Of a DNA stretch of 64,000 bases, positions 30,122 through 55,042 are shown one piece after another; the first letter of the stretch is position 1, and each line of letters starts with the position of its first letter. The position numbers and the translations under genes are program-made. Below the pieces are notes generated by a model that was not told the DNA's origin, did not search any database, and was given only the letters and a program-made list of their open reading frames with translations. The stretch is from a bacterium. GTDB taxonomy: Bacteria > Patescibacteriota > Microgenomatia > JAMCZE01. The stretch is from NCBI GenBank assembly GCA_021836035.1, contig JAKBJL010000004.1:131841-195840 (forward strand). Reading direction: 5' to 3'.

Positions 30122-30685
30122 ATGGTTGTTTTTATCGATGAATCGGGGACCAATAAGCATGAAGGACACGCAACGATGGCAGTGGTGTATGTTGAAGTAG
30201 TCAACAGAGAAAAGTTTGAAAAGGGCTTTTCCGACGCTCTTCAGGAGGTAGATATAGCGGAATTCCACTGGGCCGATCAGGGCTGGAAAGTGCGCCGCAA
30301 GTTTTTCGAGAAAGTCTTCTCCTTAGACTTCTTTTTTAAGGTGGCTGTCTTTAAAAATCCAGCCCACCCGGAAAAGATGATGGAGATTGTTTTCCAGCAC
30401 TTAATTACAGAGAAAAATATTCGGTGGATATTTATCGACGGCAAGAAGTCCCGGCGCTATGAGAATGAGTTTAAAAACGTTCTACGTTCTAAGGATATAA
30501 CCGTCAAGAAGTTGAAAACGGTTCGTAGTGAATCTTCTTATTTTGGTGTCCAGTTAGCCGACGCTCTGGCTGGGCTGATGCGCTATTTAGAGTACAATCC
30601 GGGCGCCGAAGATGCCAAACAAATGGTTTCAAAGCTGCAGAGATCTAAAAAGCTGTTTGCAAAATATATTTTCTCCGGTAAATAA
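30122..30685 (+). CDS. DUF3800-family protein
   Basis: The N-terminus MVVFIDESG matches the characteristic DUF3800 start (x-x-YIDESG). Confidence 0.5.
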   Translation: MVVFIDESGTNKHEGHATMAVVYVEVVNREKFEKGFSDALQEVDIAEFHWADQGWKVRRKFFEKVFSLDFFFKVAVFKNPAHPEKMMEIVFQHLITEKNIRWIFIDGKKSRRYENEFKNVLRSKDITVKKLKTVRSESSYFGVQLADALAGLMRYLEYNPGAEDAKQMVSKLQRSKKLFAKYIFSGK

Positions 30686-31337
30686 AACCTTCCAGAAATA
30701 TAAAAGCCCCGCGGAATGCGAGGCCAGTTAATCCAGCTAGATTGCCTTGCGGCAAACTTTCTCACACGGAGATTTGTCGCTGGTAACTTGTTGACTGTAT
30801 GTTACCACAAAAGTCAAGGAAAAACAACCGCAACTTGAGGCAAAAAAGAGTCGGTCTTGGCTATCCGCACACATACCGACTCCTTATACTGGTATATTAC
30901 CAAAAAACCAAGAGTTATCCACGCCAAAAATAGCCTCGCGATTTGCGAGGCCAGTTAAGTAAGTAGCTTATTTCTAAGCTCGTCCGCACGGGCCCTTGTC
31001 CCTACCAACCTAAGGAAGAAAGACAAATTATTGTTGATATGATTTCAACAATTAATTATTAGAAAATTTATTTAAGGTGCGAATACGTTCGATCTCCGGC
31101 ATGCTTCTCCCAAATTGGTAAGGATCGTCCTGGGCCGGCCCAACTATTCTCTAGTCTTTCCCGGGACAACACTCGTCTCTTTTGTGAAAAGATCATGACC
31201 AAAAGTCATTTTCCCCTAACTTAGGTGCGCATGGATAATGGTGCTGAGATTCGATCAAAAATGAGAGGATTTTTACGGGCCAGGCTGCTTAGCCATATTT
31301 ACAATCGGCCTTTCGGGCCAGATATGAATGGCAAGTT

Positions 31338-34700: not shown

Positions 34701-37700
34701 GGATTAATAGTCAGAGGAAAATTATTTGTCTGATCGTTAGTATCAACGATTTGGTATCCGATGACTTTCGCCCGTTCAACTGTTAAGAGTGTTTTTGCTG
34801 ATCCCGAAGCAAATGGAGAATTAACAAAAATCGACGCAGTATCACCAACCGCATATTGTCGTTTATCTGGAACGACTAAAATTCGGTCATTATTATTTCT
34901 GTCAGTCACAAAACCATACCCGGATACCCAAAGATAGCTGCTAGTTCGGTTTGTATTTCCCGAAGAATCAGTCGCCTTTGCCAAAACTCTATAAGTTCCT
35001 CCCTCGCTTGGAGTAAAAGAGGCTGCCGAGTAGCCCAGATTATCCGTTGTTACGGAAGTTGAAGAAACTAATGTATCATGAGGGTTACTAACATAAATAT
35101 ACTGACCGCTGCTGGGGTCTTGTTGACGAACCGTATCCCACGTCCGCTTATAAAATTCAATAGAAACCGGGGTATTAGGCGCTTCGTTACCGTTTGGTAA
35201 TACCGTTACTACCCCAACTTTCGATTCCTGGCCGGACTTGCTGCCATAACTTTCCGGGTGAAGTCCGACATAGATTCCGCCCTGATGAATAATGTATTCC
35301 CCTGACGAACCAACCGCTTGGTTACTCTGGTCAGAAACGGACGCAGCGACAATTAAACGCTGGCTGGTTTTATATTTACCCATGTTGAAGGGAAGCTGTA
35401 AATTAAGGTTTCCATCATTGTCGGTAACTCCTTTGCCACTTCCAACCAGCGTTTCCGAACCGTTATTTTGCCCATAACCCGACCATCGAGCCCAATAACC
35501 TTCGGGGTCGCCAAACTCATACCGCCAATCCTTGTCCCATTTAAAGAAATAATCTTGAGTTTGGACTGACCATTGAACTGGGGCATTCGTTACTGGTGCT
35601 CCAAAATAATAAGAAGAATTTATGGAGATTTGCGGCACCTCATTTGGTAAGTAGTAGCTTTTATTGGTTTTTATTGTCAAAAGCATGTCTGGGCGACGGT
35701 ATTCCTCCACCTGAAATTGCTGGGTAATACCGTTATTGGAATACGTTGCCTGAAGTTGATAATCTCCGAGAGTGGCATCGGCACTAAGGACAAACGAATC
35801 GGCAAAAGAACCATAGGAATTGATTGGCAAAGATTGGGTATAAAGTGGACGGTTCCGGGCGTCATTAATTGTTACTGAAACCTTTTCTCCCGGGGCAAGA
35901 TTCGCATAAGCGGCATCGTTATCTTTTTTAATTAATCCTTTGAAATAGACTTTTTGCCCCGGGCGGTAGATCGGTCGGTCCAAAGTCAGGAATAGCTTAT
36001 ATCGGTTGGTACTATCCTGATAATCTTTTTGCTCAGAGGGGTTGTAATAACTAGGTAGTCCAAAATCGTAACGGTTTATTCCCTGACGCCAATTACTGGA
36101 GGCAACCACTAAATCGTTGTCTTTTTGGGCAAATAGGAGCAGATTATCTTTCTGATTAAGGTTTACGTCCTGTTGCCAAACACCATCCTGGTTTGACTGA
36201 CCTTTAGCTAGTGAATTGCCGTAACTATCAGTCAATTCCATATTCATCCCTGACAGAACCGTTCCTGAACTTTGATCAACCGCCCAAGAGAAGATCTGCT
36301 GACTGCTTTTTTTAACTGTCAAAGTAGCGTTCGAAACAATCATTACTAAATTATCGTGTTGCCCCGTTGATAATTTAGCTTCCAGAAAATAAAAACCCGA
36401 CTGCAAATTTCCGCCGTTCTGATCGGTTACTTTTGTCACTACTGTTATGGGAACATTAGGATTTATGTCGAAGGTCTCGTTCCAGCTACGAACTTTTTGG
36501 AGAGCCGCGGGGTTATAATTTTGCCAGTTTCTACATTGATGATAGTCTGACCCACAGACGTTTTCATAGCGCTTTCGGTAGAGATCCAATAAATCGTTCC
36601 TGCTAAGCTTGTAAAGGTTGTAATCAATCCGGGAAGTATTAGTAACCTGGGCAACGATGCGGGGGGTAATTTGTTGGTTAAAAGTGGCAAAGAAAACGCC
36701 GAATGGCATGATTGAAACATTGGGCTGGTAAGGAGCAGTGTTGAAATTAAAAGTGTAGGCTTTTCCCAACGGAACTCCGTATTGATCTTTAACATCGGGT
36801 CCGATTGTGATCGTGTAATTGGTTGATCTTTGAAGATAGGTCCCAATTGTTAAAGTATTAACACCCTGATAATTATTAAAAACTAGCTCCGGTTTGGCAT
36901 CGGGTTCCGGACTAATAAATACGTTGCCAATGAAAGATTCCTGATCCATAGGGGTTTTGAAAATAACCTCGATCGAGTTTCGCGCCTGAATATCTTTTCC
37001 TTCGTTCTCCGGCGAGGACTTAAGCACCTTGGGCAGGTCAGCTACGGTAAAATTCCATGAGTAGTCGCTTTCCAAACCATTAGGGCCGTCGGTGCTTTGT
37101 AATCCGGAAGAAACTACAGCCCGGTAATTCTTTTCCCGATTCAATGGCGTTGATGCGTAGAACCCCAATGTTTTACCAGAAACAACCACTTTTCCGGGAA
37201 CAGAGGTGTTGGTTGAATCAAGTAGCTTGAAATATTTTGCCGCCGATGCTGGGTCGACTGGTTGGTTAAATGTAGCTGATACCGACGCAACAGGCGAGGC
37301 AAAAGAGTAACCCGAACGGGGCGTCACTGCCTCGACGTGTGGTCTTGGGCTGGAAAATTGCCAGGAAATGTTGGAATTTAAAGAACCACCGTCTTGTGAT
37401 TTCAAACCGGAATCTACCACTACGGTATAAGTTGTCGCTTTCTTAAAAGGAACTGACGGGGTAAATTGATAAGCGGTAGTGCCTAACCAACGGCCTTCCC
37501 CAACAACTGAGGGTGAAATTGTGAATGCCGGTTTTTTAAGTACACTTTTAGTAGTTGCGGTTAACGGAATCATTGGCCGATCGAAAACTACAATTACCGG
37601 GGAAAAACCCTCAACCGCTTCGTTTTGTGGGGAATAAACAGCTACTTTCGGGTCACCAACGGTGGTAAAACTAATCGTGTGGCTTCCCCAAAGGGGGGAG

Positions 37701-38320
37701 AAAAAACTCGAAAGAGTTAAACCGCCAAGTTCTGCGGTGTATTTCTGTCCCCGTATCAGCTGTGTCTTAGGAGTAAAAATCAACTTTTGGTTGCTTTCCC
37801 AGTCGAAAGTTCCCTCGACCGCAGGCGAAAGACGGAAATTTTTCTCAACCAGTGATTTGTTCATTCCTCGGTCAAAGATAATTTCAATTTTGGAATCCAG
37901 TGGGTTTTCAGTGGAGGCGTTACCCGGAAAAGAGAACGAAACTCTAGGGGGTAGGAATAACGGACCTATCTGCCACAGAAGAAACAACACGATAAATATT
38001 AGGCCCGGTTTCTTTATTATTCTCAGTTGCTCCTGCCGAGAGGAAGTTCGGAAACGTTGCAGCCATTCCTTAACATAAGTTATTACCCGATTGGGGTATG
38101 GTAATAACCTGGCGAACAGTTGGCGGATTTTTTCTTTATGGTAATCCCCTAATCTTTTGTAAATAATAAAAATAATTGCTGCTAGGGCCAAAAGCAGTTG
38201 GATAATTTGGCTTTTAATGGTCGTGAAGGGAATAATTATGAAGTAAATGCATAAAAAAAATGCAATAATAAAAAGTAAAAATATGCCGATTACTTTTCCA
38301 AATTTTCTGATAAAGCCCAT
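31769..38320 (-). CDS. bacterial alpha-2-macroglobulin-like giant protein (thioester CTEQ) carrying an inserted Hint/mini-intein-like domain
   Basis: 2183 aa with N-terminal TM helices. It has the thioester motif YPYYCTEQTTS and is adjacent to a PBP1C-type gene, the conserved A2M-PbpC pairing. A Hint domain is embedded at about aa 1343-1472. Confidence 0.7.
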   Translation of the reverse strand: MGFIRKFGKVIGIFLLFIIAFFLCIYFIIIPFTTIKSQIIQLLLALAAIIFIIYKRLGDYHKEKIRQLFARLLPYPNRVITYVKEWLQRFRTSSRQEQLRIIKKPGLIFIVLFLLWQIGPLFLPPRVSFSFPGNASTENPLDSKIEIIFDRGMNKSLVEKNFRLSPAVEGTFDWESNQKLIFTPKTQLIRGQKYTAELGGLTLSSFFSPLWGSHTISFTTVGDPKVAVYSPQNEAVEGFSPVIVVFDRPMIPLTATTKSVLKKPAFTISPSVVGEGRWLGTTAYQFTPSVPFKKATTYTVVVDSGLKSQDGGSLNSNISWQFSSPRPHVEAVTPRSGYSFASPVASVSATFNQPVDPASAAKYFKLLDSTNTSVPGKVVVSGKTLGFYASTPLNREKNYRAVVSSGLQSTDGPNGLESDYSWNFTVADLPKVLKSSPENEGKDIQARNSIEVIFKTPMDQESFIGNVFISPEPDAKPELVFNNYQGVNTLTIGTYLQRSTNYTITIGPDVKDQYGVPLGKAYTFNFNTAPYQPNVSIMPFGVFFATFNQQITPRIVAQVTNTSRIDYNLYKLSRNDLLDLYRKRYENVCGSDYHQCRNWQNYNPAALQKVRSWNETFDINPNVPITVVTKVTDQNGGNLQSGFYFLEAKLSTGQHDNLVMIVSNATLTVKKSSQQIFSWAVDQSSGTVLSGMNMELTDSYGNSLAKGQSNQDGVWQQDVNLNQKDNLLLFAQKDNDLVVASSNWRQGINRYDFGLPSYYNPSEQKDYQDSTNRYKLFLTLDRPIYRPGQKVYFKGLIKKDNDAAYANLAPGEKVSVTINDARNRPLYTQSLPINSYGSFADSFVLSADATLGDYQLQATYSNNGITQQFQVEEYRRPDMLLTIKTNKSYYLPNEVPQISINSSYYFGAPVTNAPVQWSVQTQDYFFKWDKDWRYEFGDPEGYWARWSGYGQNNGSETLVGSGKGVTDNDGNLNLQLPFNMGKYKTSQRLIVAASVSDQSNQAVGSSGEYIIHQGGIYVGLHPESYGSKSGQESKVGVVTVLPNGNEAPNTPVSIEFYKRTWDTVRQQDPSSGQYIYVSNPHDTLVSSTSVTTDNLGYSAASFTPSEGGTYRVLAKATDSSGNTNRTSSYLWVSGYGFVTDRNNNDRILVVPDKRQYAVGDTASIFVNSPFASGSAKTLLTVERAKVIGYQIVDTNDQTNNFPLTINPGYSPNVYIGAVLVKGGNLVKAPPEMKIGYVEVKVTDKKQQVAVDIQTDKKRYKPGDTMHATITTKDLLGHPVSSELAVGLVDKAVWDLSRIQLPDIYQYFYQPRNLEVDTSQLLTISMDRINKNTNLGAKGGSGGCFTADTQILLQGGMTKRIADIQPGDTVLTKSYPASVTLEPGKVTATYKHSVDHYIIINGTIQVTPVHLIYVNNGWKVAGKIKIGDYLLDKNNLPIRVFSLEQVFGKDIAVYNLEVDKYHTYFADGIYVHNQKGGGPDTARQNFPETAYWNPSLITGANGQADITVKLPDNLTTWRLAVIADTSDSAFGSAITEFLVNRDVLIRPVLPRFLSVGDQAQMGAIIVNTSGATADVSVSMSGKGFTVNDNQPRVATIADGDQVKLLWTTMVSSTNSAQVYISVNDKDGSPRDSLLQTLPVKSYSIPEVVATAGQVADTAQENVNLPKDIDPTRGQAEVTISPSLGSGSIEALSYLYEYPYYCTEQTTSKLLPAIYARRVFKQAKIDSLGVVTMAQLKFLINDGLQRLNNTQHSDGGWSWWLEGDSDPVMTAYAYQSLYEAKKDGLIVSDNTFNQAESYLWQSLSRGKTLDRDSQAYILYALKDSRRDITAPFAATLYDHRFELTMQSRAYLALVLHKSGMSGQANRVYGEMISLAKKTATSTHWEDSNKNYFYWFSDAKSATAAGLEMLLAFDPHSPYIPEVVRYLMASRTDNYWGSTQETASVVKAISMQLLSQQNKNLQEKYKLEVNGQNLKSGQFQPSDLLNLEKYIAPVSNLKLGKDNSFRLSKSGTGNLYYNFNLRYFLPFAQIKSLDQGIVVVREFVDSNGHILPSDTIKEGTEAWVRLTIVAPALRQYVTVEDILPAGLESVNESLKNVVSLSKTPPKSQTRNHEQHYQPSYFDHKEYHDDRTTLFARYLPAGVYEVTYRVRATTPGKYHYLPAQAYEMYFPDVSGHSDGGWLTVVPR
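33905..34294 (-). other. Hint / mini-intein-like domain (130 aa) inside the A2M-like ORF
   Basis: Block A CFTADTQILLQGGMTKRIADIQPGDTVLT, block B TPVH, and blocks F/G VYNLEVDKYHTYFADGIYVHN. The terminal HN is followed by Gln, not Cys/Ser/Thr. Flanking extein reads GAKGGSGG | ... | QKGGGPD. Confidence 0.65.
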
Positions 38321-40809: not shown

Positions 40810-41334
40810 CAGTTAAATTTTATCAAAGAGTTCCTAAGCGAAATATCCGGAGAATTTCTCTCCTTTTTGTTTTATTTCTAAACGAGGCTAAAAACTGGAC
40901 AGCGAGGCAAAATTAAAGTGGCAAAAATAACGGATAATCTGCTGTTCTTTTGCTTGATCGTTTAGTCAGGATACTACTCACAACCCATTTATACTTTAAA
41001 TTCCAAATATAACCTCCACTTACGTAGACAAATTATCGAATGATTTTTCAGTTAACCCCTATTATCGTCTCGTTTTGTTTTTTAGGGGTTTCTAAAGCTA
41101 CTTCGGTTAAAATCGCTTCTGGGGGAACAATTATTTTATCTTCATAAAAAAGCGCCAAATCGTCCGTAGTCATATCTTATAACTTTTAATTCAGTCTCCA
41201 TACTAACCGTATCCGGTTTTCCGTCAAGCGGAAATGAAAAACCCTTTCTCCTTTACAATAAGCGCTTCTTTGCTATATTAGGGGGTAGAAAATCATTAAC
41301 AATTTATCTTGCCCCGGAAAGCCTGCCCGTTAAA

Positions 41335-43917
41335 ATGGGAAACATAAACTGGCACAATCTGGAGGCGGGGTATTTATTAAGTCATTTCTCTTCTTATTCA
41401 GAATTACTTAAAGAAAGTTTATTTTCTGTCTCTTCCCGTTATTTTTTCCTCTCCCCTTCTTTTCTACTTTTGATATCCATAGCGCTCTCCCTTCTTATCG
41501 TTATTCGCAGGCTTTTTATCCTAAAAAGATCGCTGAGTGAAGAACCGGTATTTCTGGAACTGACCCCGCCGGCCCTCACCGATAAAACCTCTTATACCAC
41601 CGCCCGGCTTTTCTCCGTCGTCCACGAACTGGGGAAGATTGGGTACCCGGGCGATAAGCTTTTAGGTAAAAAGACCGTTTTTTCTTTTGAAATCTCCTCC
41701 ACCCTTAAGCAGGGTATTCGCTATTTCATACGGACTACCCGGACCGAAGAAGATAACATCAAAAAAAGCCTTTTAGCCTACCTTCCCCAAATAAGCGTTA
41801 AAGAAGCGACTGATTACCTGCCGGGAAAGGCCGGCGGTTTATTTTGCCTAAAAGTACTTGAATTTAAACTCAACCGCCACTTTGCCTTTCCCCTTAAAAA
41901 ACAGAATGTTTTGGAAGAACACGATCCCCTCGCCTACATAACCGGCATGATGACCAAGCTCAAACCCGGGGAATTAGTCTCTTTCCAAATTGTCCTGTCT
42001 CCGGTTCAGCCAAAGGAAACAGAGACTATCTCCGACAAGATTCTTCACGGCGATGATGTATTTAAGTATCTGGAAAGAATACCTCTACCGTCGCTTTTTA
42101 AACCGCTAACCTATGGCTTATCGCTTTTGTCTAAACTGCTGCATCCTTTCGCTGCCCTACCAAAAAGAACCTATAACACCTTCGAACAACAGGCGGTAAA
42201 AAGCATTCAGGAGAAAATCGAACAACCGCTTTTTGAGACTTCGGTCAGATTATTGCTTATGGTAAAGAACAAAAATCAGATAAGGGAAAGAAAAAACGGT
42301 TTTGTTTCCTCCTTGGCCACTTTCTCTGTGCCTAAATATCAGGCTTTTAAGGCCAAATATAATCTTCTGCCCTGGATCCTGGACAAAATTAACCTTTTTA
42401 ACTTCCAAAAGAGACGGTTGTCTTGGCTTTTAAATTCCAGTCCCGTGTATCTTTCTTTAGCTGAGGTTTCCGACCTCTATCACTTTCCATTTAAGAGGGT
42501 CACCCAGACAGAAGACCTGGTAAAAGTGTATGCCAAAGACCTTCCCGCGCCGTTATCGTTGAAAAACACCAAGCTTGATTATGTTTTTGCTAAAAACAGC
42601 TTCGGAGGTACGGTTACCGATATCGGGCTAACAGACAAGGAGAGGGAAAAACACGTGTACATTATCGGCGCTACCGGCACCGGCAAGACCACGATGATTA
42701 TGTCCATGGCCAATAATGACTTGAAAAACGGTAAGGGACTGTGTGTTATTGACCCTCACGGCGACCTGGCTGAAAGTATTATCGCCTGTGTTCCGGATGA
42801 AAGAATTTCGGATTTTATCTACTTTAACCCGGACGATATCAAATATCCCATCGGGCTAAATCTCTTGGAACTGACTCCCGGACTGGATGAAGACGAGCTT
42901 TTAAGGGAAAAAGAGCTGATTACCGAAAGCGTGGTGTCCCTGTTTAGGAAAATCTTCTCCGAAGTCTGGTCTGCCCATGCCCATAGGATTGAATATATCT
43001 TAAGAAACACCATCCAGACAGCTTTGTGCCTGAAAGATCCGACCATCTTTACCGCCTACCGCCTTTTGACCGATCCGGAGTTTCAAAAATCGGCTATGCA
43101 TGATGTCACGGATGAAAATTTGAAAAACTTCTGGAAAAACGAGTTTGGCAAGGCCGGCGATTTCCAGAAAGTGAAAATGATCGGGCCAATTACTTCAAGA
43201 ATCGGACGTCTTCTATTTTCTCCATCTGCTAAAAGGATTTTGGAACAGCCCAGGTCAACGATTAACTTTGATGAGATCCTGGACAAGGGAAAAATCCTGG
43301 TTTGCAACTTGTCTAAAGGCCGCCTGGGAGAGGATACGTCAGAAGTTTTGGGAATTATGATTTTAACTAAAATCCAGCTGGCTTCTCTTAAGAGGGCACG
43401 GATCGATGAAGGGAAAAGAAGTCCTTATTACGTTTACGTTGACGAATTCCAAACCTTTGCCACCCCGTCTTTTATCCAGATGATATCTGAGTCGAGAAAA
43501 TACAAGGTTTACCTCGTCATGGCCGAGCAGTCCACTTCCCAGCAAAAAGACCGCAATATAACAAACGTCATAATCGCCAACGTCGGAACAGTCATAAGTT
43601 TTCGAAGCGCCAACCCGGAGGATGAAAAACTGATGCTTCCGCAGTTTGAACCGTATGTTGATAAGGGAGAAATTACCAATCTGCCATCCTTCAAGTTCTA
43701 CATGAAGATATCAGCCATTACTCCCCGGGAACCTTTCTCCGGGGAAACGATTTTAACTCCGGTAAATAAGGATAAAGACCGGTGTACGTCGCTTATCCAA
43801 TCCTCGCGCAATTTGTATGCCAAAGAATATCTCGCTCCGGTTGCAACCAAAGTTATTCCCAGAGCAAAAAAGCCCGGAAAAGAAGAAGTTTTTGAATCGA
43901 TAAGCGTCCTGACTTAA
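41335..43917 (+). CDS. type IV coupling protein-like P-loop ATPase (VirD4/TraD/TraG superfamily)
   Basis: 860 aa with an N-terminal TM segment, Walker A IIGATGTGKTTMI, VIDPHGD and Walker B YVYVDEFQTF. Confidence 0.6.
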   Translation: MGNINWHNLEAGYLLSHFSSYSELLKESLFSVSSRYFFLSPSFLLLISIALSLLIVIRRLFILKRSLSEEPVFLELTPPALTDKTSYTTARLFSVVHELGKIGYPGDKLLGKKTVFSFEISSTLKQGIRYFIRTTRTEEDNIKKSLLAYLPQISVKEATDYLPGKAGGLFCLKVLEFKLNRHFAFPLKKQNVLEEHDPLAYITGMMTKLKPGELVSFQIVLSPVQPKETETISDKILHGDDVFKYLERIPLPSLFKPLTYGLSLLSKLLHPFAALPKRTYNTFEQQAVKSIQEKIEQPLFETSVRLLLMVKNKNQIRERKNGFVSSLATFSVPKYQAFKAKYNLLPWILDKINLFNFQKRRLSWLLNSSPVYLSLAEVSDLYHFPFKRVTQTEDLVKVYAKDLPAPLSLKNTKLDYVFAKNSFGGTVTDIGLTDKEREKHVYIIGATGTGKTTMIMSMANNDLKNGKGLCVIDPHGDLAESIIACVPDERISDFIYFNPDDIKYPIGLNLLELTPGLDEDELLREKELITESVVSLFRKIFSEVWSAHAHRIEYILRNTIQTALCLKDPTIFTAYRLLTDPEFQKSAMHDVTDENLKNFWKNEFGKAGDFQKVKMIGPITSRIGRLLFSPSAKRILEQPRSTINFDEILDKGKILVCNLSKGRLGEDTSEVLGIMILTKIQLASLKRARIDEGKRSPYYVYVDEFQTFATPSFIQMISESRKYKVYLVMAEQSTSQQKDRNITNVIIANVGTVISFRSANPEDEKLMLPQFEPYVDKGEITNLPSFKFYMKISAITPREPFSGETILTPVNKDKDRCTSLIQSSRNLYAKEYLAPVATKVIPRAKKPGKEEVFESISVLT

Positions 43918-43983
43918 GTAATTTCAGTGTCAGACCTTTGACACCGGATCTAATTAAAATTGAGGCTAACCAGCTAAAAAGTC

Positions 43984-44838
43984 TTGTCTATATATTACTT
44001 ATACAAGTATAAGGAGAGAAACAATATAAAAGCTGTTAAGGAACAAAAAAATATGAAGACTCCCCCTAAACTAAATCCCAGACTTGAAGAGATCCTCCTT
44101 CTAATTTACCGATTCCGATTTCTAACTACTTCTCAAATTCAAATCCTTCTTAATCATAAATATCACAGCCGTGTCAATCTCTGGCTAAATCAATTAACCG
44201 CTAGAAATTATCTCAAGCGCTACTATAACTTAAAATTTGCCGGTGAGCCAGCTTTATACTCTTTGGGAACTGCCGGAAGAAAATATTTCAAAACCCACAA
44301 AGAAATTAACAGAATAAAATTGTCGCTTCTTGATAGGGTTTGGACGGAGTACCGTAATTCCTCCCAATTTAAGCGTAACTGCCTGTTGCTGGCTGATATT
44401 TATATCTCCCTTTTAAGTTTAGCTAATAAAGCAAAAGCCAAGCTGGGTTTTTATTCCAAAGTCGATCTTTTCGGCATGAAATTTATGGTTTTGCCCGAAC
44501 CATCGTGTTATTTTTCCCTGGAAGACCAAAACGGCGTAACCAAACGCTATTTTCTGGATATCTTTGACTACTTTGTTCCCAAAGACCTTTTTAAACGGAT
44601 TAAAAAATACCTCTACTACTTTGAAAAACGCTACTGGCAGGACCATACCGACAAAACCTTCCCGGAGATAATCCTGGTCTGTCCCAATAAAGCGGCAAGA
44701 ACTTATCTGGAGAAAACCATCAGGGGCAACCTTGAAGATAAAGATTATTCCCTAACATTTTACTTGGCCTTGACAGAAGATATTCAGCAAAAAGGATTAA
44801 ACAGACAGGTATTACAAAAAGTAGAAATTCAATATTAA
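43984..44838 (+). CDS. replication-relaxation (Replic_Relax) family protein, putative relaxase/mobilisation protein
   Basis: An N-terminal wHTH-like LNPRLEEILLLIYRFRFLTTSQIQILL is typical of the Replic_Relax family. It sits directly downstream of the coupling ATPase. Confidence 0.5.
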   Translation: MSIYYLYKYKERNNIKAVKEQKNMKTPPKLNPRLEEILLLIYRFRFLTTSQIQILLNHKYHSRVNLWLNQLTARNYLKRYYNLKFAGEPALYSLGTAGRKYFKTHKEINRIKLSLLDRVWTEYRNSSQFKRNCLLLADIYISLLSLANKAKAKLGFYSKVDLFGMKFMVLPEPSCYFSLEDQNGVTKRYFLDIFDYFVPKDLFKRIKKYLYYFEKRYWQDHTDKTFPEIILVCPNKAARTYLEKTIRGNLEDKDYSLTFYLALTEDIQQKGLNRQVLQKVEIQY

Positions 44839-44875: not shown

Positions 44876-45733
44876 ATGAATTGGATAATTGCCAGCTTAG
44901 TAATGTTCGTTTCCTCGGTAGTGATGTATTTGTTTATCCGTAAATCGGCTTTACTAAAACTTCCTTCTCAATATAACAACCTCGCAATGTTTGGGATACC
45001 ATTATTCGTCTTTATTACCATAGGGTTGTTTTCAAAACAAAATTTCATAATTCCTTTTAACTATCTTCTCGCTATCTTTATAATTTCTATATTATTTAGT
45101 TATCTTGGAAACGTATTTTCTTTAATTAGTATCGAACGGTCTCCCAATCCTGGTTACAGCTTAGTAATCTCAAAAAGCTATGTAGTATTTACGACCATAC
45201 TTTCCGTTTTGTTCTTCAATTCCGAGTTGTCCATCAAGAAAGGGATCGCAATACTTCTTATCGTCGTATTTTCTGCACTCATAATGTTGTCGCAAAAATC
45301 TATAAAAAAAGTCTCTAACAATAGGTGGCTGTTCCTTGCTTTTGGAGCGTTTTTTTGCTGGGGCTTCTTATCTTTAGCCTCTAAATATATGTTTAACTTA
45401 GGGGTTGGGCTTTACGTATTTTTGTCTTATACCTACCTTTTCGTAAGTATTTGTATATTAATTGAAATGCATATTAAGAAAATGTCCCTCAAGTCATTTG
45501 TAAAGAATCCTTGGCAATTTTTATTAATCGGTCTTGCCTCGATTGGGTTCAATCTTTTTCTTTTCTTGGCAATAAAGCTGGCTCCAAATGTTGGATATGT
45601 TAATGCAATTAACGCTGGCTCAATTTCCGCGGTAACGGTACTAGCGATTTTATTATTTAAAGATGAATTTTCACTACGAAAGCTTGTTGGTGTAATTGGG
45701 GTTACAGCCGGACTTTTGATGCTGTTAATTTAG
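44876..45733 (+). CDS. polytopic membrane protein, DMT/EamA-like
   Basis: 285 aa with about 10 TM helices arranged as two similar halves. Confidence 0.35.
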   Translation: MNWIIASLVMFVSSVVMYLFIRKSALLKLPSQYNNLAMFGIPLFVFITIGLFSKQNFIIPFNYLLAIFIISILFSYLGNVFSLISIERSPNPGYSLVISKSYVVFTTILSVLFFNSELSIKKGIAILLIVVFSALIMLSQKSIKKVSNNRWLFLAFGAFFCWGFLSLASKYMFNLGVGLYVFLSYTYLFVSICILIEMHIKKMSLKSFVKNPWQFLLIGLASIGFNLFLFLAIKLAPNVGYVNAINAGSISAVTVLAILLFKDEFSLRKLVGVIGVTAGLLMLLI

Positions 45734-45800
45734 ACCAAAAAACCGCAAGCGAGAGGGGTTAGTCTCCCGCCTGCGGTTGAAAACTCACTTGCTCATGATT
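45733..45800 (-). terminator. repeat element Y copy 1: hairpin + T-run on minus strand, carrying the 3' tail (IMSK*) of a lost DUF2958-like gene
   Basis: gaccaaaaaaccgcaagcg..cgcctgcggtt..ctcacttgctcatgat is near-identical to the element at 47498..47551. Read on minus it gives ATCATGAGCAAGTGA = I-M-S-K-stop, a hairpin and a TTTTTT run. Confidence 0.5.
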
Positions 45801-45897
45801 TTGTTAATCGACAAATTTCAATGCATGGCTCTATCTTATGCAAGATATTTGTTTTACTTTTATAGTAAAGCCAGGAAATTTATTGATTCTTTTAGTA

Positions 45898-45925
45898 TTG
45901 ACAATATATCATATTATGATATAAT
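45898..45925 (+). promoter_or_regulatory. sigma-70-like promoter for AbiEi gene (TTGACA-N16-TATAAT), apparently leaderless
   Basis: ttgaca atatatcatattatga tataat cagcat ATG; the -10 ends 6 nt before the start codon. Confidence 0.45.
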
Positions 45926-45931
45926 CAGCAT

Positions 45932-46714
45932 ATGAAAAGAACTTTACTTACATCCCGGGATTCAGCTATTCTTGAGGAAGCTTTGGCTAAATTCGGGAAT
46001 ATTGTGACAACCCGCGATCTTTACAGCATCCTTAAAGACGCCTCAAAAGCTCAAGCTTTAAATATCATTAGCAGGTTAGCCAAAAGAGGCTGGTTAGTTC
46101 GTATAAAGCACGGTACTTATAGTATTGCAGATTTAACTTCGCGGGGTTATTTAGATGCTTCACAGTTGGTAGTTGCCCAAACAATTTGTAGCAATTCCTA
46201 TGTGACTATGGAGGCGGCGCTCGGTTATCACGGTATGTTTGACCAGTTATTAAGTACCATAACCTCAGTTTCTCTTGCTCAAATACGAACAACTAATTCC
46301 GGCAGCAGCAACTACCATTATATCTCGACGCAAAATCACTTCTTTTACGGTTTTGACGAGGTAACTATCGAAGGAAAACAAGTAAAAATTGCCACAATTG
46401 AAAAAGCCCTCATCGATCTTATTCAGTTTAATCGATCAATATACTCGGTCGATTTAGTTATCGAAAAAATGCAAACTTATAAAGATAAAATAAATTTCAA
46501 TCGGCTGGCGAGCTATTTAGAAAAATCCACAACCGCAACTACGCGTATATTCGGGTATATTTTTGATCTGCTTGGGATAAAAAGTTCCAGTCTTGATAAT
46601 ATAGTCAAAGAAGATACAAGTACGACATATCTTTCCAAAGACAGCGGGGTGTATCAGGCGAAATGGAGGTTATATATAGATAAATATTTTGACAAATATT
46701 CACAAAGTGCATGA
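45932..46714 (+). CDS. AbiEi-family antitoxin-like protein (type IV TA / abortive infection)
   Basis: An N-terminal wHTH (SRDSAILEEALAKFGNIVTTRDLYSIL) plus a C-terminal domain. It overlaps by 4 nt with a downstream AbiEii-type gene. Confidence 0.55.
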   Translation: MKRTLLTSRDSAILEEALAKFGNIVTTRDLYSILKDASKAQALNIISRLAKRGWLVRIKHGTYSIADLTSRGYLDASQLVVAQTICSNSYVTMEAALGYHGMFDQLLSTITSVSLAQIRTTNSGSSNYHYISTQNHFFYGFDEVTIEGKQVKIATIEKALIDLIQFNRSIYSVDLVIEKMQTYKDKINFNRLASYLEKSTTATTRIFGYIFDLLGIKSSSLDNIVKEDTSTTYLSKDSGVYQAKWRLYIDKYFDKYSQSA

Positions 46715-47475
46715 ATACCACTGTTCTTAGCCGGCAACAGTTAACGATAATTAACAGGAAAACATTAAGATACCCGCTTCATATTGCGGAAAAGGATTAT
46801 TTTCTAGCTTTTGTCATGCAGATTATTTCCAGATCAACTTTAGGGCAAAGTTTGGTGTTTAAAGGTGGCACCGCTTTACACCACTGTTTTTTAAATCAAT
46901 ATCGCTTCTCCGAAGACCTGGATTTTTCCGCTAATAGGTCTCCGGTATCACTTGATCGGGTGCGGACAATGTTTGCCGGAGTTGATTGCTTAACTATTAA
47001 AAAAGACTATCTGTCAAATGCCACAATTAAAATTGAAAAACTGCAGTACACTGGACCATTAATTCAACCCAATTCCCTTAAAGTAGAAATTGATTTTCTT
47101 CAGGATGTACTTTTACCTTCGAAATCCATGAAATATCAAAATGTTTGGGGAATTGATTTTAAAGTCAATGCTATGGACCAAAAAGAAATTTGCGCCGAAA
47201 AAATACGCGCCATGAGCGACCGTGCCCGCTATCGTGATTTTTATGATTTATACCTCCTTTTCGAAAAATACCAACCTGATATACATGAAATAATAGAGTA
47301 TGTTAAACAAAAAGAAATCAGGCGTCCCATTACCAAAGAAAATATTATTAATAACTGGAAAGTTGTTAACTCTCAAAAAGTGCAAGAAATGAGCCGGATT
47401 TATTTCTCAAAAGATGTAGCTGATACACGGATAAAAGCAATGATTGATATGCTTCCGTTCACAACAATAGACTAA
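46711..47475 (+). CDS. AbiEii/AbiGii-family nucleotidyltransferase toxin (DUF1814)
   Basis: Signature LVFKGGTALHHCFLNQYRFSEDLDFS (KGGTAL...RxSxDLDF). Confidence 0.7.
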   Translation: MNTTVLSRQQLTIINRKTLRYPLHIAEKDYFLAFVMQIISRSTLGQSLVFKGGTALHHCFLNQYRFSEDLDFSANRSPVSLDRVRTMFAGVDCLTIKKDYLSNATIKIEKLQYTGPLIQPNSLKVEIDFLQDVLLPSKSMKYQNVWGIDFKVNAMDQKEICAEKIRAMSDRARYRDFYDLYLLFEKYQPDIHEIIEYVKQKEIRRPITKENIINNWKVVNSQKVQEMSRIYFSKDVADTRIKAMIDMLPFTTID

Positions 47476-47497
47476 AAATTTGAAAGATAAAACTTTA

Positions 47498-47545
47498 GAC
47501 CAAAAAACCGCAGGCAAGAGTTGTCAGTTCCCACCTGCGGTTATA
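47498..47545 (-). terminator. repeat element Y copy 2: rho-independent terminator of the DUF2958 gene
   Basis: A 9-bp stem aaccgcagg/cctgcggtt followed on minus by TTTTTT, immediately after the stop at 47549. Confidence 0.55.
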
Positions 47546-47548
47546 AGC

Positions 47549-47842
47549 TCACTTGCTCATGATCTCTGACAAGTGACAAGGCTTGAAATAGCGATCCCGT
47601 TCCACCGGCAATCCCAGCTTGCCCCGGTTGGAAGTAAGTTCGCTTAGGCTAAAGTAGCCCAGCTCCTTCTCAAACCCATCGACCAATCCGAAGAACTGGT
47701 CACGGCCATCAAACTCAATGGCGTACCAGGTCCAGGAAAAGTCCGGATAGAAGAACTTACAAATTATCATGGGATCTTTAACTTCCTCCTGGGAATAAAG
47801 CGGGGGCAGTTTTTCCAGAATATCTTTAGTCAAAAGCTGCAT
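47549..47842 (-). CDS. DUF2958-family protein (plasmid/ICE-associated)
   Basis: 97 aa from the ATG preceded by GGAGGTG. The ORF track extends it to a TTG at 47857. The pattern W.WY..EFDG...FGLV.G.E.ELGYFSL.EL resembles DUF2958. Confidence 0.45.
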   Translation of the reverse strand: MQLLTKDILEKLPPLYSQEEVKDPMIICKFFYPDFSWTWYAIEFDGRDQFFGLVDGFEKELGYFSLSELTSNRGKLGLPVERDRYFKPCHLSEIMSK

Positions 47843-47861
47843 CTTTATCACCTCCAATCTA

Positions 47862-47950
47862 AAAAATACGGATAGGAACTTTGTCCTGTCCGTTAAATTG
47901 GGGGCATGGGGTGAAAAGCGGGTGTCAAAAGTCGAAGCAAAGCGAGAGGA
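47862..47950 (-). promoter_or_regulatory. repeat element X copy A' (diverged), 5' leader of DUF2958 gene
   Basis: On minus it reads cttttgacacccgcttttcaccccatgcccccaatttaacGGACAGGACAAAGttcc, i.e. TTGACA plus a conserved GGACAGGACAAAG leader ending at the RBS. It forms a 16-bp inverted repeat with copy A. Confidence 0.45.
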
Positions 47951-47999
47951 TTTTAACGCCTGTCAGAAAAATGCCAACATCAGTAATAAGTCTTATTAA

Positions 48000-48088
48000 A
48001 ACCGCATTTTTCTACAGGCTTAAATACCCACCTTTTGACAGCCGGTTTGAACCCCATAAAATAAGAAGACAAGGACAGGACAAAGTTC
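48000..48088 (+). promoter_or_regulatory. repeat element X copy A: TTGACA-N16-TAAAAT promoter + CAAGGACAGGACAAAG leader, upstream of second AbiE pair
   Basis: ggcttaaatacccaccTTTTGACAgccggtttgaaccccaTAAAATaagaagaCAAGGACAGGACAAAG. Confidence 0.5.
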
Positions 48089-48237
48089 TAAAAGGGTTTA
48101 GGAATACTTTATCCCTAAGATAATAAAAACATTTATATAATCGATTCCACTTTTGCCGGCATTCCTCTTGACAGGGACACAAAAATAATCTTTTATGTAC
48201 TAAATATCTTAAATATTAAGATGTATAGTACATTTAT

Positions 48238-48828
48238 ATGATATCCATGGATAATGATTTTATATTATCTCTTTATCGCCGGCCGGAAACCGTTTTTAGT
48301 GTTGATGAGATCGCCCAGCTTTTTCCCCATCTATCAACGGAAAGCTTGCGTAACCGTCTCTACTATTTCAGTAAATCCGGCAAGCTGAAAAGACTTCATA
48401 CCGGAATTTATGCCAAAGAGGGCTATAATAACTTTGAACTAGTTAATAAACTGTACAAGCCTTCCTATATCAGTCTGGAAACCGTTCTTAGTCGTGGCGG
48501 AGTCATCTTTCAGTATTACGAGACCATCTTTGCCGTTTCTTATGTTACCCGGGAGGTCCGGTTAAACAACTTGGGGATACAGTATCGCCGGGTAAAAGGT
48601 CCTGTTTTAACAAACTTGACTGGAATTAATCGGGAAAACGGTTACTTTATCGCTTCATTGGAGCGGGCTTTCCTCGATGCCATTTATGTCTACAAAAACT
48701 ATCACTTTGATAATTTAAGAGGCCTTGATTGGGATAAGGTAGCTGTTTTTAAAACAATTTATAACAACGCCATTCTGGAAAAGAAAGTTGAGGAGTATTA
48801 TCAGACTTTTAAAGAAGAAAATGCTTAA
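48238..48828 (+). CDS. AbiEi-like antitoxin (second copy, divergent sequence)
   Basis: 196 aa with an N-terminal HTH-like region, a C-terminal domain, and an overlapping downstream AbiEii-type gene. Confidence 0.5.
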   Translation: MISMDNDFILSLYRRPETVFSVDEIAQLFPHLSTESLRNRLYYFSKSGKLKRLHTGIYAKEGYNNFELVNKLYKPSYISLETVLSRGGVIFQYYETIFAVSYVTREVRLNNLGIQYRRVKGPVLTNLTGINRENGYFIASLERAFLDAIYVYKNYHFDNLRGLDWDKVAVFKTIYNNAILEKKVEEYYQTFKEENA

Positions 48829-49525
48829 TATTGATTTACATCGTAATATGGAAATTTCCATATTAAAAGCAATTTATGCTGATCCTTTTTTACGCAATAT
48901 TTTAGGATTTAAAGAAGGAACAGCGGCGATGCTTTTTTACGATTTACCGCGATTTTCCGTTGATCTCGATTTTAATTTGCTCGACGAGAATAAACAATAC
49001 GAAGTTTTTGAGAAAATAAAAAAGTTGCTTTTAAACTTCGGGGTACTTGATGATGCTTCCGATAAAAAAAACACGCTTTTTTTTCTTTTAACTTACCAAA
49101 AAGGGGAAAGAAAATTGAAAATAGAAATCTCCAAAAGGCCGCTGCAGTTTGTTTACCTACCGAAAAATTATTTAGGTATTTCCATGCTGGCTATGCAGGA
49201 AAAGGACATGCTACCCGCTAAACTATCAGCTCTTTTAACCAGACGGAAGTTTGCGGCCCGGGATATGTATGATTTGTGGTTTTTCCTAAAAAACAACTGG
49301 CCGATAAATGAAAATATCCTTAAGCAGAATACCGATTTATCGGTTAAAGAAGCTTTCATGGAAGCCCAAAAAAAGATTGCGGCGGTTAAAAAAAGCGAGA
49401 TGTTGTCCGGTATAGGGGATTTACTGGATAATAAACAGAAATCCTGGGTAAAGGAAAAACTTCGTGATGAATTGATCTTTCAGTTGAAATTGCACTCACA
49501 AAACTATCAAAATAAAAGTGACTAA
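48821..49525 (+). CDS. AbiEii-family nucleotidyltransferase toxin (second copy)
   Basis: FKEGTAAMLFYDLPRFSVDLDFN. Its ATG at 48821 overlaps the upstream stop in ATGCTTAA, so the pair is probably translationally coupled. The ORF track starts at 48788. Confidence 0.65.
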   Translation: MLNIDLHRNMEISILKAIYADPFLRNILGFKEGTAAMLFYDLPRFSVDLDFNLLDENKQYEVFEKIKKLLLNFGVLDDASDKKNTLFFLLTYQKGERKLKIEISKRPLQFVYLPKNYLGISMLAMQEKDMLPAKLSALLTRRKFAARDMYDLWFFLKNNWPINENILKQNTDLSVKEAFMEAQKKIAAVKKSEMLSGIGDLLDNKQKSWVKEKLRDELIFQLKLHSQNYQNKSD

Positions 49526-49539
49526 CCCTTTTTGAACTT

Positions 49540-49704
49540 CTACCGTAGATTAAAACCGCATTTTTCTACAGGCTGAAAACCCGCCTTTTGACGGCCGGTT
49601 TGACCTTTGGGCGGATATTCCCAGGCTTTTTTAAATCCCAACTTACCATAGAAGTCGATAACTTTCTCAAAATCTGGAACATGAAGTTCGAAGATGACGT
49701 CAAA
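49540..49704 (-). pseudogene. start-less N-terminal fragment of a VOC/glyoxalase-family gene
   Basis: Minus-strand frame FDVIFELHVPDFEKVIDFYGKLGFKKAW... (VOC motif) with no start codon. Its tail overlaps repeat element X copy B. Confidence 0.35.
49553..49625 (+). repeat. repeat element X copy B (5' half conserved, 3' half diverged)
   Basis: aaaaccgcatttttctacaggctgaaaacccgccttttgacggccggtttgacc shares about 50 nt with copy A, and then diverges. Confidence 0.4.
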
Positions 49705-49718
49705 TTAAGCCAGCCTAC

Positions 49719-51539: not shown

Positions 51540-51635
51540 GTCGACTACAAATGTATTCTTTTACCGGCTTAAACCCGCCTTTTGACAGATCATTTAAACC
51601 CTATATAACGAAAAGGCAGGACAGGACGAAGAGAG
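51540..51635 (+). promoter_or_regulatory. repeat element X copy C: TTGACA-N16-TATAAC promoter + CAGGACAGGACGAAG leader upstream of S51 peptidase operon
   Basis: ccggcttaaacccgccTTTTGACAgatcatttaaaccctaTATAACgaaaagGCAGGACAGGACGAAG. Confidence 0.5.
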
Positions 51636-54482: not shown

Positions 54483-54580
54483 TCCGCAGTCGACTACAAA
54501 TGTATTCTTTTACCGGCTTAAAACCACCTTTTGACAGGTCCTTTAAACCCTATATAACGAAAAGCAGGACAGGACAAAAT
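54483..54580 (+). promoter_or_regulatory. repeat element X copy D (near-identical to copy C)
   Basis: ccggcttaaaaccaccTTTTGACAggtcctttaaaccctaTATAACgaaaagCAGGACAGGACAAAA. Confidence 0.5.
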
Positions 54581-54729: not shown

Positions 54730-54879
54730 AAGGAATTTAACTCGGAACGAGCTGGCAAGATTAGCAAAAATGGACAGAAGCGGGTTAACCGATATCGAAA
54801 GCGGTAAAAATAACATTACACTGCGGACCCTTCTTAAAATTGCCCGCGCTCTTAATGTTAAGGTAAGTGAATTAGTATA
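54730..54879 (+). pseudogene. 5'-truncated XRE/Cro-type HTH regulator
   Basis: The frame NLTRNELARLAKMDRSGLTDIESGKNNITLRTLLKIARALNVKVSELV* is a typical XRE HTH core. It lacks helix 1 and any in-frame start after the upstream stop. Confidence 0.35.
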
Positions 54880-55042
54880 AAGGGAGTTTGATCTATTAAA
54901 ATATCTTGCAAATGGCCGATAAATAGTACTATATTAGCCACATGACCACGATTAGCGATTATCTGTGTGTCAGGAACCAACCGTCATAGGTTGGTTTTTT
55001 TGTTTAAAAATTGAAATTTAAACGGAAAGGGGGTGAAAAAAT

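Follow-up and report, generated by a model that had tools for sequence, protein, structure and literature searches.

We analyzed a stretch of 64,000 nucleotides from contig JAKBJL010000004.1 (assembly GCA_021836035.1), hereafter the window, in which a DUF2958 gene lies between two AbiEi/AbiEii antitoxin-toxin pairs of the abortive infection (Abi) type. The results indicated that this segment is likely to be a mosaic of backbone genes and variable cargo belonging to an integrative mobilizable or conjugative element in a Roizmanbacteria-like Patescibacteria genome, with the two AbiE cassettes as cargo, the toxin of the second cassette probably dead, and DUF2958 as a backbone gene. An earlier reading of this DNA, referred to below as the original prediction, had placed the pairs at 45932-47475 (AbiE-1, or pair 1) and 48238-49525 (AbiE-2, or pair 2), and both the open reading frames (ORFs) and the profile matches bore this out. 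The coordinates of the features are collected in Table 1.

Genes for a coupling protein of a type IV secretion system (T4SS), for a Replic_Relax relaxase and for mating-pair formation were all found in the window; two VirB2-like pilin genes, TrbL-like, PrgI-like and VirB4-like genes and an M23 peptidase gene lie downstream, at 55.9-61.1 kb. The region of the coupling protein (T4CP) and relaxase genes (41269-44784) showed 86.5% nucleotide identity to a related element, L012, to which DUF2958 with its terminator showed 81% and the region of a hairpin built from a repeat named X showed 79%. We propose that the backbone would run in the order T4CP, Replic_Relax, a shared terminator, DUF2958 on the opposite strand, and then the promoter hairpin, whose length ranges from about 145 to 225 nt across its family. 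The EamA transporter gene and AbiE-1 would represent an insertion in a first slot, between the relaxase gene and the terminator, and AbiE-2 would be the present occupant of a second slot, downstream of the outward-facing promoter of the hairpin. In L012, a PDDEXK_1 gene stands where the window has EamA and AbiE-1, and RadC, a diversity-generating retroelement (DGR; bAvd-RT) and a different AbiE take the place of AbiE-2. In L009, L010 and L011, the same two slots are filled by a mer operon and BlaI/BlaR-DsbA, and EamA was absent from the relaxase-DUF2958 junction of the related loci. An AbiE-1-type pair, whose toxin is 74% identical to AbiEii-1, is located 74 nt from the hairpin in L109/L118, and both AbiE types stand side by side in L098 (42% and ~65% protein identity). 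Judged from this gene content, it seems fair to call both slots beside DUF2958 cargo hotspots, and the original prediction that the Abi modules occupy a hotspot inside a mobile element agreed with the T4CP, Replic_Relax and T4SS genes around them and with the variable cargo in the same slots of the relatives. AbiE cassettes are in themselves ordinary, being among the commonest toxin-antitoxin or Abi families, and their status as cargo of a mobile element is expected. We also observed that a DGR (bAvd and reverse transcriptase) fills the cargo slot beside the hairpin in L012 (6325-9179; GCA_021789995.1), L101, L104, L112, L113 and L016, and that it is transcribed from the X(+) side.

Both cassettes are bracketed by direct repeats. 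The left repeat of AbiE-1 was 86-89% identical to the right repeat and 80.6% identical to the terminator and DUF2958 3' end of L012, and a terminator-like hairpin was called on its minus strand; by its sequence, it is what remains of the 3' end of a second DUF2958. The repeats on the two sides of AbiE-2 are the full X(+) arm of the hairpin and a truncated X copy. A fresh target-site duplication around AbiE-1 was considered and rejected on account of the low identity of the two copies. Because the bracketing direct repeats of backbone sequence are only 85-89% identical, the arrangement would fit a history in which related elements recombined or accreted, bringing in the cassettes, and deletion followed. 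In that case, an active pair could have an addiction role, in that deletion between the repeats that bracket it would be penalised. Repeated copies also bracket a toxin-antitoxin module in the F plasmid, in which Frpo1 and Frpo2, with 92% identity, flank flmAB as copies of X flank AbiE-2 here, and flmAB has been proposed to guard the interval against deletion (PMC9849209).

The original prediction had regarded the DUF2958 gene as a candidate Abi or defence accessory, and this was not supported by its neighbourhoods. Among 80 DUF2958 loci at the species level, a T4CP homolog was present in 35, Replic_Relax in 25 and RadC in 12, whereas any AbiEii was present in only 4. Because DUF2958 is far commoner with T4CP, relaxase and RadC than with AbiE, we conclude from gene content that it is a backbone gene of the element and not an Abi accessory. 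Of the 25 loci with a Replic_Relax gene, 24 have it facing the 3' side of DUF2958 in convergent orientation, usually at a distance of 25-65 nt, and on plasmids DUF2958 adjoins relaxase/MobC, TraG and strawberry-notch genes. Database searches returned 2917 homologs with E<=1e-10, and the closest relatives came from Roizmanbacteria, Daviesbacteria, Levybacteria and other Patescibacteria genomes. The protein had no PADLOC or PHROG match, its AlphaFold2 model (pLDDT 94.4) had no match in the PDB below E = 0.7, and in the literature the domain was mentioned in two papers only, each time in passing. Its position in the element suggests an establishment or leading-region gene, or an anti-defence factor. 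ATG 47842, which follows GGAGGTG, is more likely to be the start codon than TTG 47857. The stem and T-run of its terminator were conserved after DUF2958 in most related loci. An origin of transfer (oriT) and an attC-like site were also considered for the 70-bp repeat that contains this terminator; the stem has a G.T wobble on the mRNA-sense strand and the loop varies, which identified it as an ordinary intrinsic terminator, and the oriT proposal was left without support. In addition, two forms of DUF2958 occur, one of 97 aa and one of ~147 aa (L014, L018, L019, L100 and L114; proteins such as P0008 and P0053); in the longer one, an N-terminal extension of 50 aa begins 33-52 nt after the hairpin and could be either a real domain or an over-called ORF running through a longer leader.

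Both antitoxins and both toxins matched the PADLOC AbiEi/AbiEii models with E values from 2e-34 to 1e-63. In Pfam, the two nucleotidyltransferases were assigned to AbiEii (106.6 and 51.3 bits; gathering score of PF08843, 22.5 bits) and the middle gene to DUF2958 (55.5 against 21 bits), and the NCBIfam model TAA_AbiEi scored below its cut-off for both antitoxins. The toxins shared 30% identity over 154 aa and no significant BLASTP match was found between AbiEi-1 and AbiEi-2, so the original prediction of highly diverged copies held; as judged from these comparisons, the pairs are two independent AbiE-family cassettes and not a recent duplication. Overlap of the start and stop codons had also been predicted correctly. 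The genes of pair 1 share a 4-nt ATGA overlap (46711-46714), and those of pair 2 overlap by 8 nt if the toxin begins at ATG 48821, the antitoxin ending with TAA at 48826-48828; this start gives a protein of 234 aa, a length matching that of the AbiEii-2 homologs.

From its sequence, the AbiE-1 cassette looks functional. All four motifs were intact in the translation of AbiEii-1 (KGGTAL, RFSEDLDF, EKIRAMSDR/KIRAMSDR and RDFYD), and AbiEi-1 combines an N-terminal AbiEi_4 winged helix-turn-helix (wHTH) domain with a C-terminal AbiEi_1 domain, both exceeding the Pfam cut-offs. The perfect TATAAT that the original prediction had noted 6 nt before the first antitoxin ATG proved to belong to the only promoter site with 12 of 12 consensus positions in 4.8 kb, TTGACA (45898) and TATAAT (45920-45925) with TG ahead of the latter and 16 nt between the boxes. 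The 6-nt gap between TATAAT and the ATG contained no Shine-Dalgarno sequence, and the homolog in L098 keeps the promoter, at 9 nt from its ATG, together with the ATATCA..TGATAT core of the palindrome. Therefore, a leaderless or near-leaderless abiEi-1 mRNA, as the original prediction had suggested, appears plausible. The palindrome that encloses this promoter is 55 bp long, with 27-nt arms that are 74% complementary and 1 nt apart, and its centre falls between the -35 and -10 boxes. Weak Rfam matches of the palindrome to eukaryotic miRNA and snoRNA families were dismissed as chance.

The second cassette gave a different picture in one respect. The original prediction had read KGGTA...RFSxDLDF in both toxins; RFSxDLDF was indeed found in both and KGGTA in pair 1, but the first motif of pair 2 is KEGTA. 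The codon at 48914-48916 is GAA and differs by a single transition from GGA, and motifs II-IV are kept (RFSVDLDF, KLSALLTR and RDMYD). In an alignment of the 120 closest sequences, which were 57-75% identical apart from the cluster of the window protein itself, the first glycine of motif I was G in 119 of 120, and E occurred only in that cluster; the substitution (G32E) was found in assemblies from two samples. In the AbiEii of Streptococcus agalactiae, the G49A single mutant was non-toxic while G50A was still toxic, and mutants of motif I also lost GTP binding (PMC3985639). Because G49A abolishes the toxicity of the S. agalactiae protein and the equivalent of this invariant glycine is lost here, AbiEii-2 is probably non-toxic, either inactive or strongly attenuated, and AbiE-2 is probably a decaying or attenuated module. 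A count of "stacked defence systems" made by profile matches alone would overstate the active content of the region, given that the toxin of pair 2 carries this single-nucleotide change. The palindrome of pair 2 stops 5 nt ahead of the AbiEi-2 ATG. AbiEi-2 had no Pfam match, reached 36 bits against TAA_AbiEi, and was 42% identical to its partner in L098.

In organization, both pairs resemble the AbiE systems of S. agalactiae and Lactococcus lactis (Dy et al. 2014, PMC3985639). They are bicistrons with the antitoxin gene first, the antitoxin of pair 1 consists of an AbiEi_4 wHTH and a COG5340-type C-terminal domain, the toxins are of the DUF1814 type with motifs I-IV, and a Ser/Thr phosphoacceptor is located two residues ahead of DxD. 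The palindromes of both pairs resemble the S. agalactiae abiE operator, a 23-bp inverted repeat (IR) of the form IR-N3-IR that is bound by AbiEi (PMC3985639). By homology, AbiEi would repress its own operon through a palindromic operator overlapping or abutting the start and would also neutralise AbiEii, a DUF1814 nucleotidyltransferase. Several features differ from those systems, however. Pair 1 is apparently leaderless and its IR arms are 27 nt long with a 1-nt gap; in pair 2, the spacing of motifs I and II is 14 residues instead of 15, the AbiEi is missed by Pfam, and the toxin has E at the position equivalent to G49; and the host is a mobile element of Patescibacteria. The label "type IV toxin-antitoxin", which the original prediction had used, follows the 2014 classification. 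A 2026 preprint ties T65 of the S. agalactiae toxin to antitoxin-induced autophosphorylation and reclassifies that AbiE as type VII (10.64898/2026.01.19.700257); both toxins of the window have Ser at the equivalent phosphoacceptor position of RFSxDLDF. The mechanistic model for AbiEii is borrowed from the MenAT systems (MenT1-4/MenA) of Mycobacterium tuberculosis, which belong to the same DUF1814 nucleotidyltransferase superfamily, although they are distant from the window toxins in sequence; the MenAT toxins act on the acceptor stems of tRNAs, which they modify, and the antitoxin neutralises them by inducing their autophosphorylation (PMC7450476, PMC11375011).

The original prediction had suggested that the stacked Abi modules mark an anti-phage or addiction hotspot, with DUF2958 and a neighbouring 162-aa ORF as candidate accessory or defence components. 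Taken to its full extent, this scenario would have two active AbiE pairs and make both of these genes new accessories of defence. The recurrence of AbiE near DUF2958 in L012, L098 (both types together) and L109 is consistent with it, as is the variability of the slots. However, AbiEii-2 lacks the motif I glycine that is essential in the S. agalactiae homolog, the company that DUF2958 keeps is far more often T4CP, relaxase and RadC than AbiE, and neither DUF2958 nor the 162-aa ORF has a PADLOC match, which makes the scenario very improbable. The role proposed for the 162-aa ORF is also contradicted by synteny. A search of 5.8 billion clusters revealed one close homolog (97% identical, GCA_027331545.1), which is flanked by the housekeeping genes for BipA, PGM, GPI, PPDK and enolase and not by Abi genes, and it is precisely at position 49718, where the 162-aa gene has its 3' end, that the two genomes cease to be homologous. 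A HMMER scan of 1.84 billion representatives added only 13 weak relatives, and the three of these that were scanned had no informative domain. The ORF itself had no Pfam, PADLOC, NCBIfam or PHROG match, and when contigs were looked up by exact sequence, the 162-aa and DUF2958 proteins led only to the window's own contig, ENA ERZ27233560 k141_344887, or to identical fragments. On present evidence, the ORF is a near-orphan outside the DUF2958 module and not a defence candidate. The 118 nt that separate the truncated X copy from this gene's 3' end (49601-49718) contain a terminator-like hairpin at 49606-49625 followed by a T-run; the segment matches none of L003, L009, L012, L098 and L109, and it marks the point where homology to L003 stops.

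Several observations weigh against the mosaic-element interpretation. The large serine recombinase of L009 and L012 has no counterpart here, no integrase adjoining the window T4CP; the stretch homologous to L012 reaches no further than 66 nt upstream of the T4CP gene; the block at 49.7-55.7 kb, between the DUF2958 module and the T4SS genes, is in a chromosomal context in a related genome; and the effect of G32E is extrapolated from a distant homolog. Neither an integrase or recombinase beside T4CP nor att boundaries were found in the window. Since the large serine recombinase of the relatives is missing beside T4CP, the element in the window may be a remnant or differently organised. In L009 and L012, a 74-aa HTH_3 gene is located beside the recombinase; in the window, past X copy D, a short ORF at 54740-54880 (MDRSGLTDIESGKNNITLRTLLKIARALNVKVSELV) resembles the C-terminal half of an XRE/HTH_3 repressor and could be a remnant of the element's regulator.

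The original prediction had noted that DUF2958 shares the leader of repeat X, and this could be refined. The leader GGACAGGACAAA is located upstream of DUF2958 on the minus strand (47880-47892) and recurs in X copies at 48072, 51618 and 54566, and the copy of X adjoining DUF2958 forms one of the two arms of an inverted repeat that is 213 nt long (I1 and I3). As single-stranded DNA (ssDNA), this repeat folds into a hairpin of -55.8 kcal/mol (z = -10.3); no such folding was seen for the X copies with a single arm, at 51.5 and 54.5 kb (z = +1.2 and +0.5). Rfam contained no family for X or the hairpin at gathering or E-value thresholds. A DNA-pattern scan of metagenomes, together with genome loci, provided 25 distinct hairpins of two size classes, ~206-223 nt and ~143-157 nt. 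From the base upward, the hairpin consists of an invariant outer stem of 12-16 bp (TTTGTCCTGTCC/GGACAGGACAAA), an asymmetric internal loop, a stem ATGGGGT/ACCCCAT and a stem containing the -35 box. The X(+) arm has the consensus TTGAYA-16-TATAAT, with TAAAAT in the window, and a -10 box (TATAAT, TATTAT, TATCAT or TAAAAT) occurred only on this arm, the opposite arm always reading GCCCC... In the folded plus strand, TTGACA is paired and TAAAAT/TATAAT, on the 3' arm, lies partly within the internal loop and partly at its edge; the first T of the -10 box is paired and the rest, to about +3, is unpaired, so that a conserved bubble spans about -11 to +3. In each of the 26 loci for which it was available, the sequence downstream of the hairpin holds DUF2958, 33-58 nt past the right arm, or RadC followed by DUF2958, while the gene on the other side varied.

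The pairing itself appeared to be maintained. Across 33 distinct cores, 89.5% of cells were paired, compared with 36-49% when the partner was slid, and 14 pairs had changed on both sides, compared with 3.7+-1.3 in shuffles, none of 500 shuffles reaching 14. Variants of the outer stem changed together on both arms (ATCC../..GGAT, ..CTATCC/GGATAG.. and ..TGTCAT/ATGACA..; GGATGCCCGC/GCGGGCATCC in an Anaerolineae genome), and diverged relatives keep the plan of the hairpin with a different sequence, the -10 box staying on one arm. The counts of G.T versus A.C mismatches in the hairpin, made to tell which strand folds, are dominated by 2-3 invariant columns at the loop edge, and one majority A.C column points the other way.

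These features would be explained if the hairpin were a promoter in ssDNA, comparable to Frpo/ssi or to the single-strand origins (sso) of rolling-circle plasmids, that serves DUF2958 or RadC and then DUF2958. This proposal complements the interpretation of the segment as a mobile-element mosaic and is its least certain step; we consider the chances evenly balanced. When the plus strand is single-stranded, through conjugative entry or rolling-circle displacement, the hairpin would fold, and the 3' arm, X(+), would supply the non-template -35 box in a stem and the -10 box in a pre-opened bubble, running from the loop to the base. The 5' arm, which is contiguous with DUF2958, would be the template, and RNA polymerase would transcribe into DUF2958, giving an mRNA with a 5' untranslated region of ~45 nt that includes GGAGGTG. 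The outcome would be early expression, a primer for complementary-strand synthesis, or both. Such a promoter would explain why the DUF2958-facing arm has a -35 box but no -10 box, why no sigma-70-type promoter facing DUF2958 in double-stranded DNA (dsDNA) was seen in the short-class hairpins, whose sequences were read by eye, and why the hairpin and DUF2958 are passed on together, whereas the gene on the far side of the hairpin is exchanged. It is also consistent with the conservation of the architecture in both size classes and with the gene orientation, which fits a T-strand template with DUF2958 entering early and the relaxase last.

The closest parallels are Frpo1/Frpo2 and ssi of F and ColIb-P9 (Masai & Arai 1997; PMC9849209; PMC11541004), non-coding stem-loops of a few hundred nucleotides or less that rebuild -35 and -10 boxes in ssDNA, with the folded strand as the template, upstream of conserved small genes of unknown function. 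Early genes of the leading region are expressed from Frpo/ssi promoters on the transferred strand, until its conversion to double-stranded DNA shuts these promoters off (PMC11541004, PMC9849209). The likeness is one of architecture, and several features differ: the host here belongs to Patescibacteria and has a relaxase of the Replic_Relax type, the downstream gene is DUF2958 or RadC instead of ssb or psiB, and the outward-facing arm of the hairpin appears to double as a dsDNA promoter for the cargo. A comparable size and geometry is found in ssoA/ssoU of rolling-circle plasmids, orientation-specific hairpins of 130-250 nt with promoter-like boxes at which RNA polymerase primes complementary-strand synthesis. 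However, sso primers are short and end inside the element, whereas the transcript of the hairpin described here would run into a protein-coding gene. We tentatively propose, at somewhat less than an even chance, that the hairpins of this family of mobilizable elements, which is found in Patescibacteria and has relatives also in Chloroflexota and further phyla, form a previously undescribed class of ssDNA promoter, which drives DUF2958 or RadC first after DNA entry and whose arm doubles as a dsDNA cargo promoter, DUF2958 being an establishment or anti-defence factor. If this is true, Frpo-like promoters would extend to the candidate-phyla-radiation bacteria, whose horizontal gene transfer is almost unstudied. 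The hairpin-DUF2958 module offers a testable hypothesis, early expression from ssDNA, for an uncharacterised domain with thousands of homologs on plasmids and integrative and conjugative elements.

Not all of the evidence favours an ssDNA promoter. Most stem positions are invariant, so that the covariation rests on a few diverged lineages, and the same signal could arise by gene conversion between the arms. As the search for the metagenome loci used a pattern of the right arm, the invariance of that arm among them is partly by construction. Moreover, GGACAGGACAAA is invariant even in the single-arm X copies that do not fold, which suggests a sequence-specific role as an operator or an mRNA leader. 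This last point leads to an alternative in which the inverted X arms are a purely double-stranded divergent promoter and operator, a regulator of the element binds the symmetric boxes (GGACA GGACA, CACCCCAT and CTTTTGACA), and the hairpin never forms. It is in line with the stand-alone X(+) copies in front of other cargo at 51544-51630 and 54493-54580 and with a possible dsDNA promoter facing DUF2958 in the window copy, TTGGCA-16-TAAAAT at 47977-47950. However, it leaves unexplained the conserved -35 box without any -10 box on the DUF2958-facing arm, the complementarity of the arms that is kept when the sequence is wholly replaced (L031; the inner stem of L100), and the 100-nt arms that stay in register in two size classes, and we therefore regard it as rather unlikely. 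The hypothesis that the hairpin is the oriT of the element, or an insertion resembling a miniature inverted-repeat transposable element (MITE), appears improbable. The length of the inverted repeat, its position near the relaxase gene, its invariant terminal 12-mers and the half copies elsewhere in the window might be expected of such a structure, but a near-consensus promoter with a conserved asymmetric bubble is expected of neither, and the strict linkage to DUF2958 across diverged lineages is unlike a dispersed MITE. To our knowledge, no nic-site motif has been described for the Replic_Relax relaxase family.

Table 1. Features of the DUF2958 region and its surroundings in the window (positions in nucleotides of the window; strand in brackets)
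Feature	Position (strand)	Details
T4SS coupling protein (T4CP); backbone	41335..43917 (+)	Pfam TrwB_AAD_bind, DUF87, TraG-D_C
Replic_Relax relaxase/replication-type protein; backbone	43984..44838 (+)	PF13814, 35.3 bits vs cut-off 25.3
EamA transporter; cargo between relaxase and DUF2958	44876..45733 (+)	Pfam EamA
Relic, by sequence, of DUF2958 terminator and last 5 DUF2958 codons; left direct repeat bracketing AbiE-1	45729..45799	repeat families D7/D8
AbiE-1 promoter and operator-like palindrome	45887..45941 (+)	-35 45898-45903, -10 45920-45925, ATG 45932
AbiEi-1 antitoxin/repressor, 260 aa	45932..46714 (+)	Pfam AbiEi_4 34.6 bits, AbiEi_1 27.1 bits; PADLOC AbiEi E = 2.3e-34
AbiEii-1 DUF1814 nucleotidyltransferase toxin, 254 aa	46711..47475 (+)	PF08843 106.6 bits, E = 2.5e-30; PADLOC AbiEii E = 2.1e-37
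DUF2958 intrinsic terminator	47494..47548 (-)	stem ACCGCAGG..CTTGCGG and T-run; part of right direct repeat 47494-47563
DUF2958 protein, 97 aa	47549..47842 (-)	PF11171 55.5 bits vs cut-off 21; from ATG 47842; ribosome-binding site GGAGGTG
Conserved, putative promoter hairpin made of two inverted X arms, 213 nt	47876..48088	X(+) arm: -35 TTGACA 48035-48040, -10 TAAAAT 48057-48062
Operator-like palindrome 5' of AbiEi-2	48195..48233 (+)	two 18-nt arms, 89% complementary, 3 nt apart
AbiEi-2 antitoxin, 196 aa	48238..48828 (+)	PADLOC AbiEi PDLC02255, full length, E = 7.9e-56
AbiEii-2 toxin homolog, 234 aa, G32E in motif I	48821..49525 (+)	PF08843 51.3 bits, E = 2e-13; PADLOC E = 1.4e-63
Truncated X(+) copy; right direct repeat bracketing AbiE-2	49549..49600 (+)	repeat family D4, 85% identical to 47995-48035

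Further copies of X are associated with another apparent rearrangement. Two direct repeats, 51462-51615/54411-54564 (154 nt, 90%) and 50957-51024/54389-54456 (68 nt, 100%), each consisting of the 3' end of a PsbP_2-like gene and an X(+) promoter arm, bracket a 3.4-kb block that encodes an S51 peptidase-DinB fusion, a glyoxalase/bleomycin-resistance-like protein, an ANT(2'')-like nucleotidyltransferase and an HD protein. This block was not found in the related genome of L003 and looks like a cassette gained or lost via X-repeat recombination. At the right end of the T4SS block, a gene on the minus strand (61478-63919) encodes an 813-aa AAA_5 protein of the dynein-related/McrB-like ATPase family, which could be a defence or cargo gene.

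Two other loci of the window also deserve mention. A DUF3800-II RNA (Rfam RF02961, 67.7 bits) is located at 30722-30794 on the minus strand, just downstream of a DUF3800 gene (30122-30685, plus strand), and 30 nt of its sequence recur at a distance of 227 nt (30929-30958, 83% identity), possibly as a second, degenerate copy. A bacterial alpha-2-macroglobulin of 2183 aa (31769-38320, minus strand) adjoins a PBP1-type transglycosylase/transpeptidase; between its bait region and the A2M domains (residues ~1340-1472), we found PT-HINT, Hint and intein-like matches, which may represent an intein or Hint insertion.

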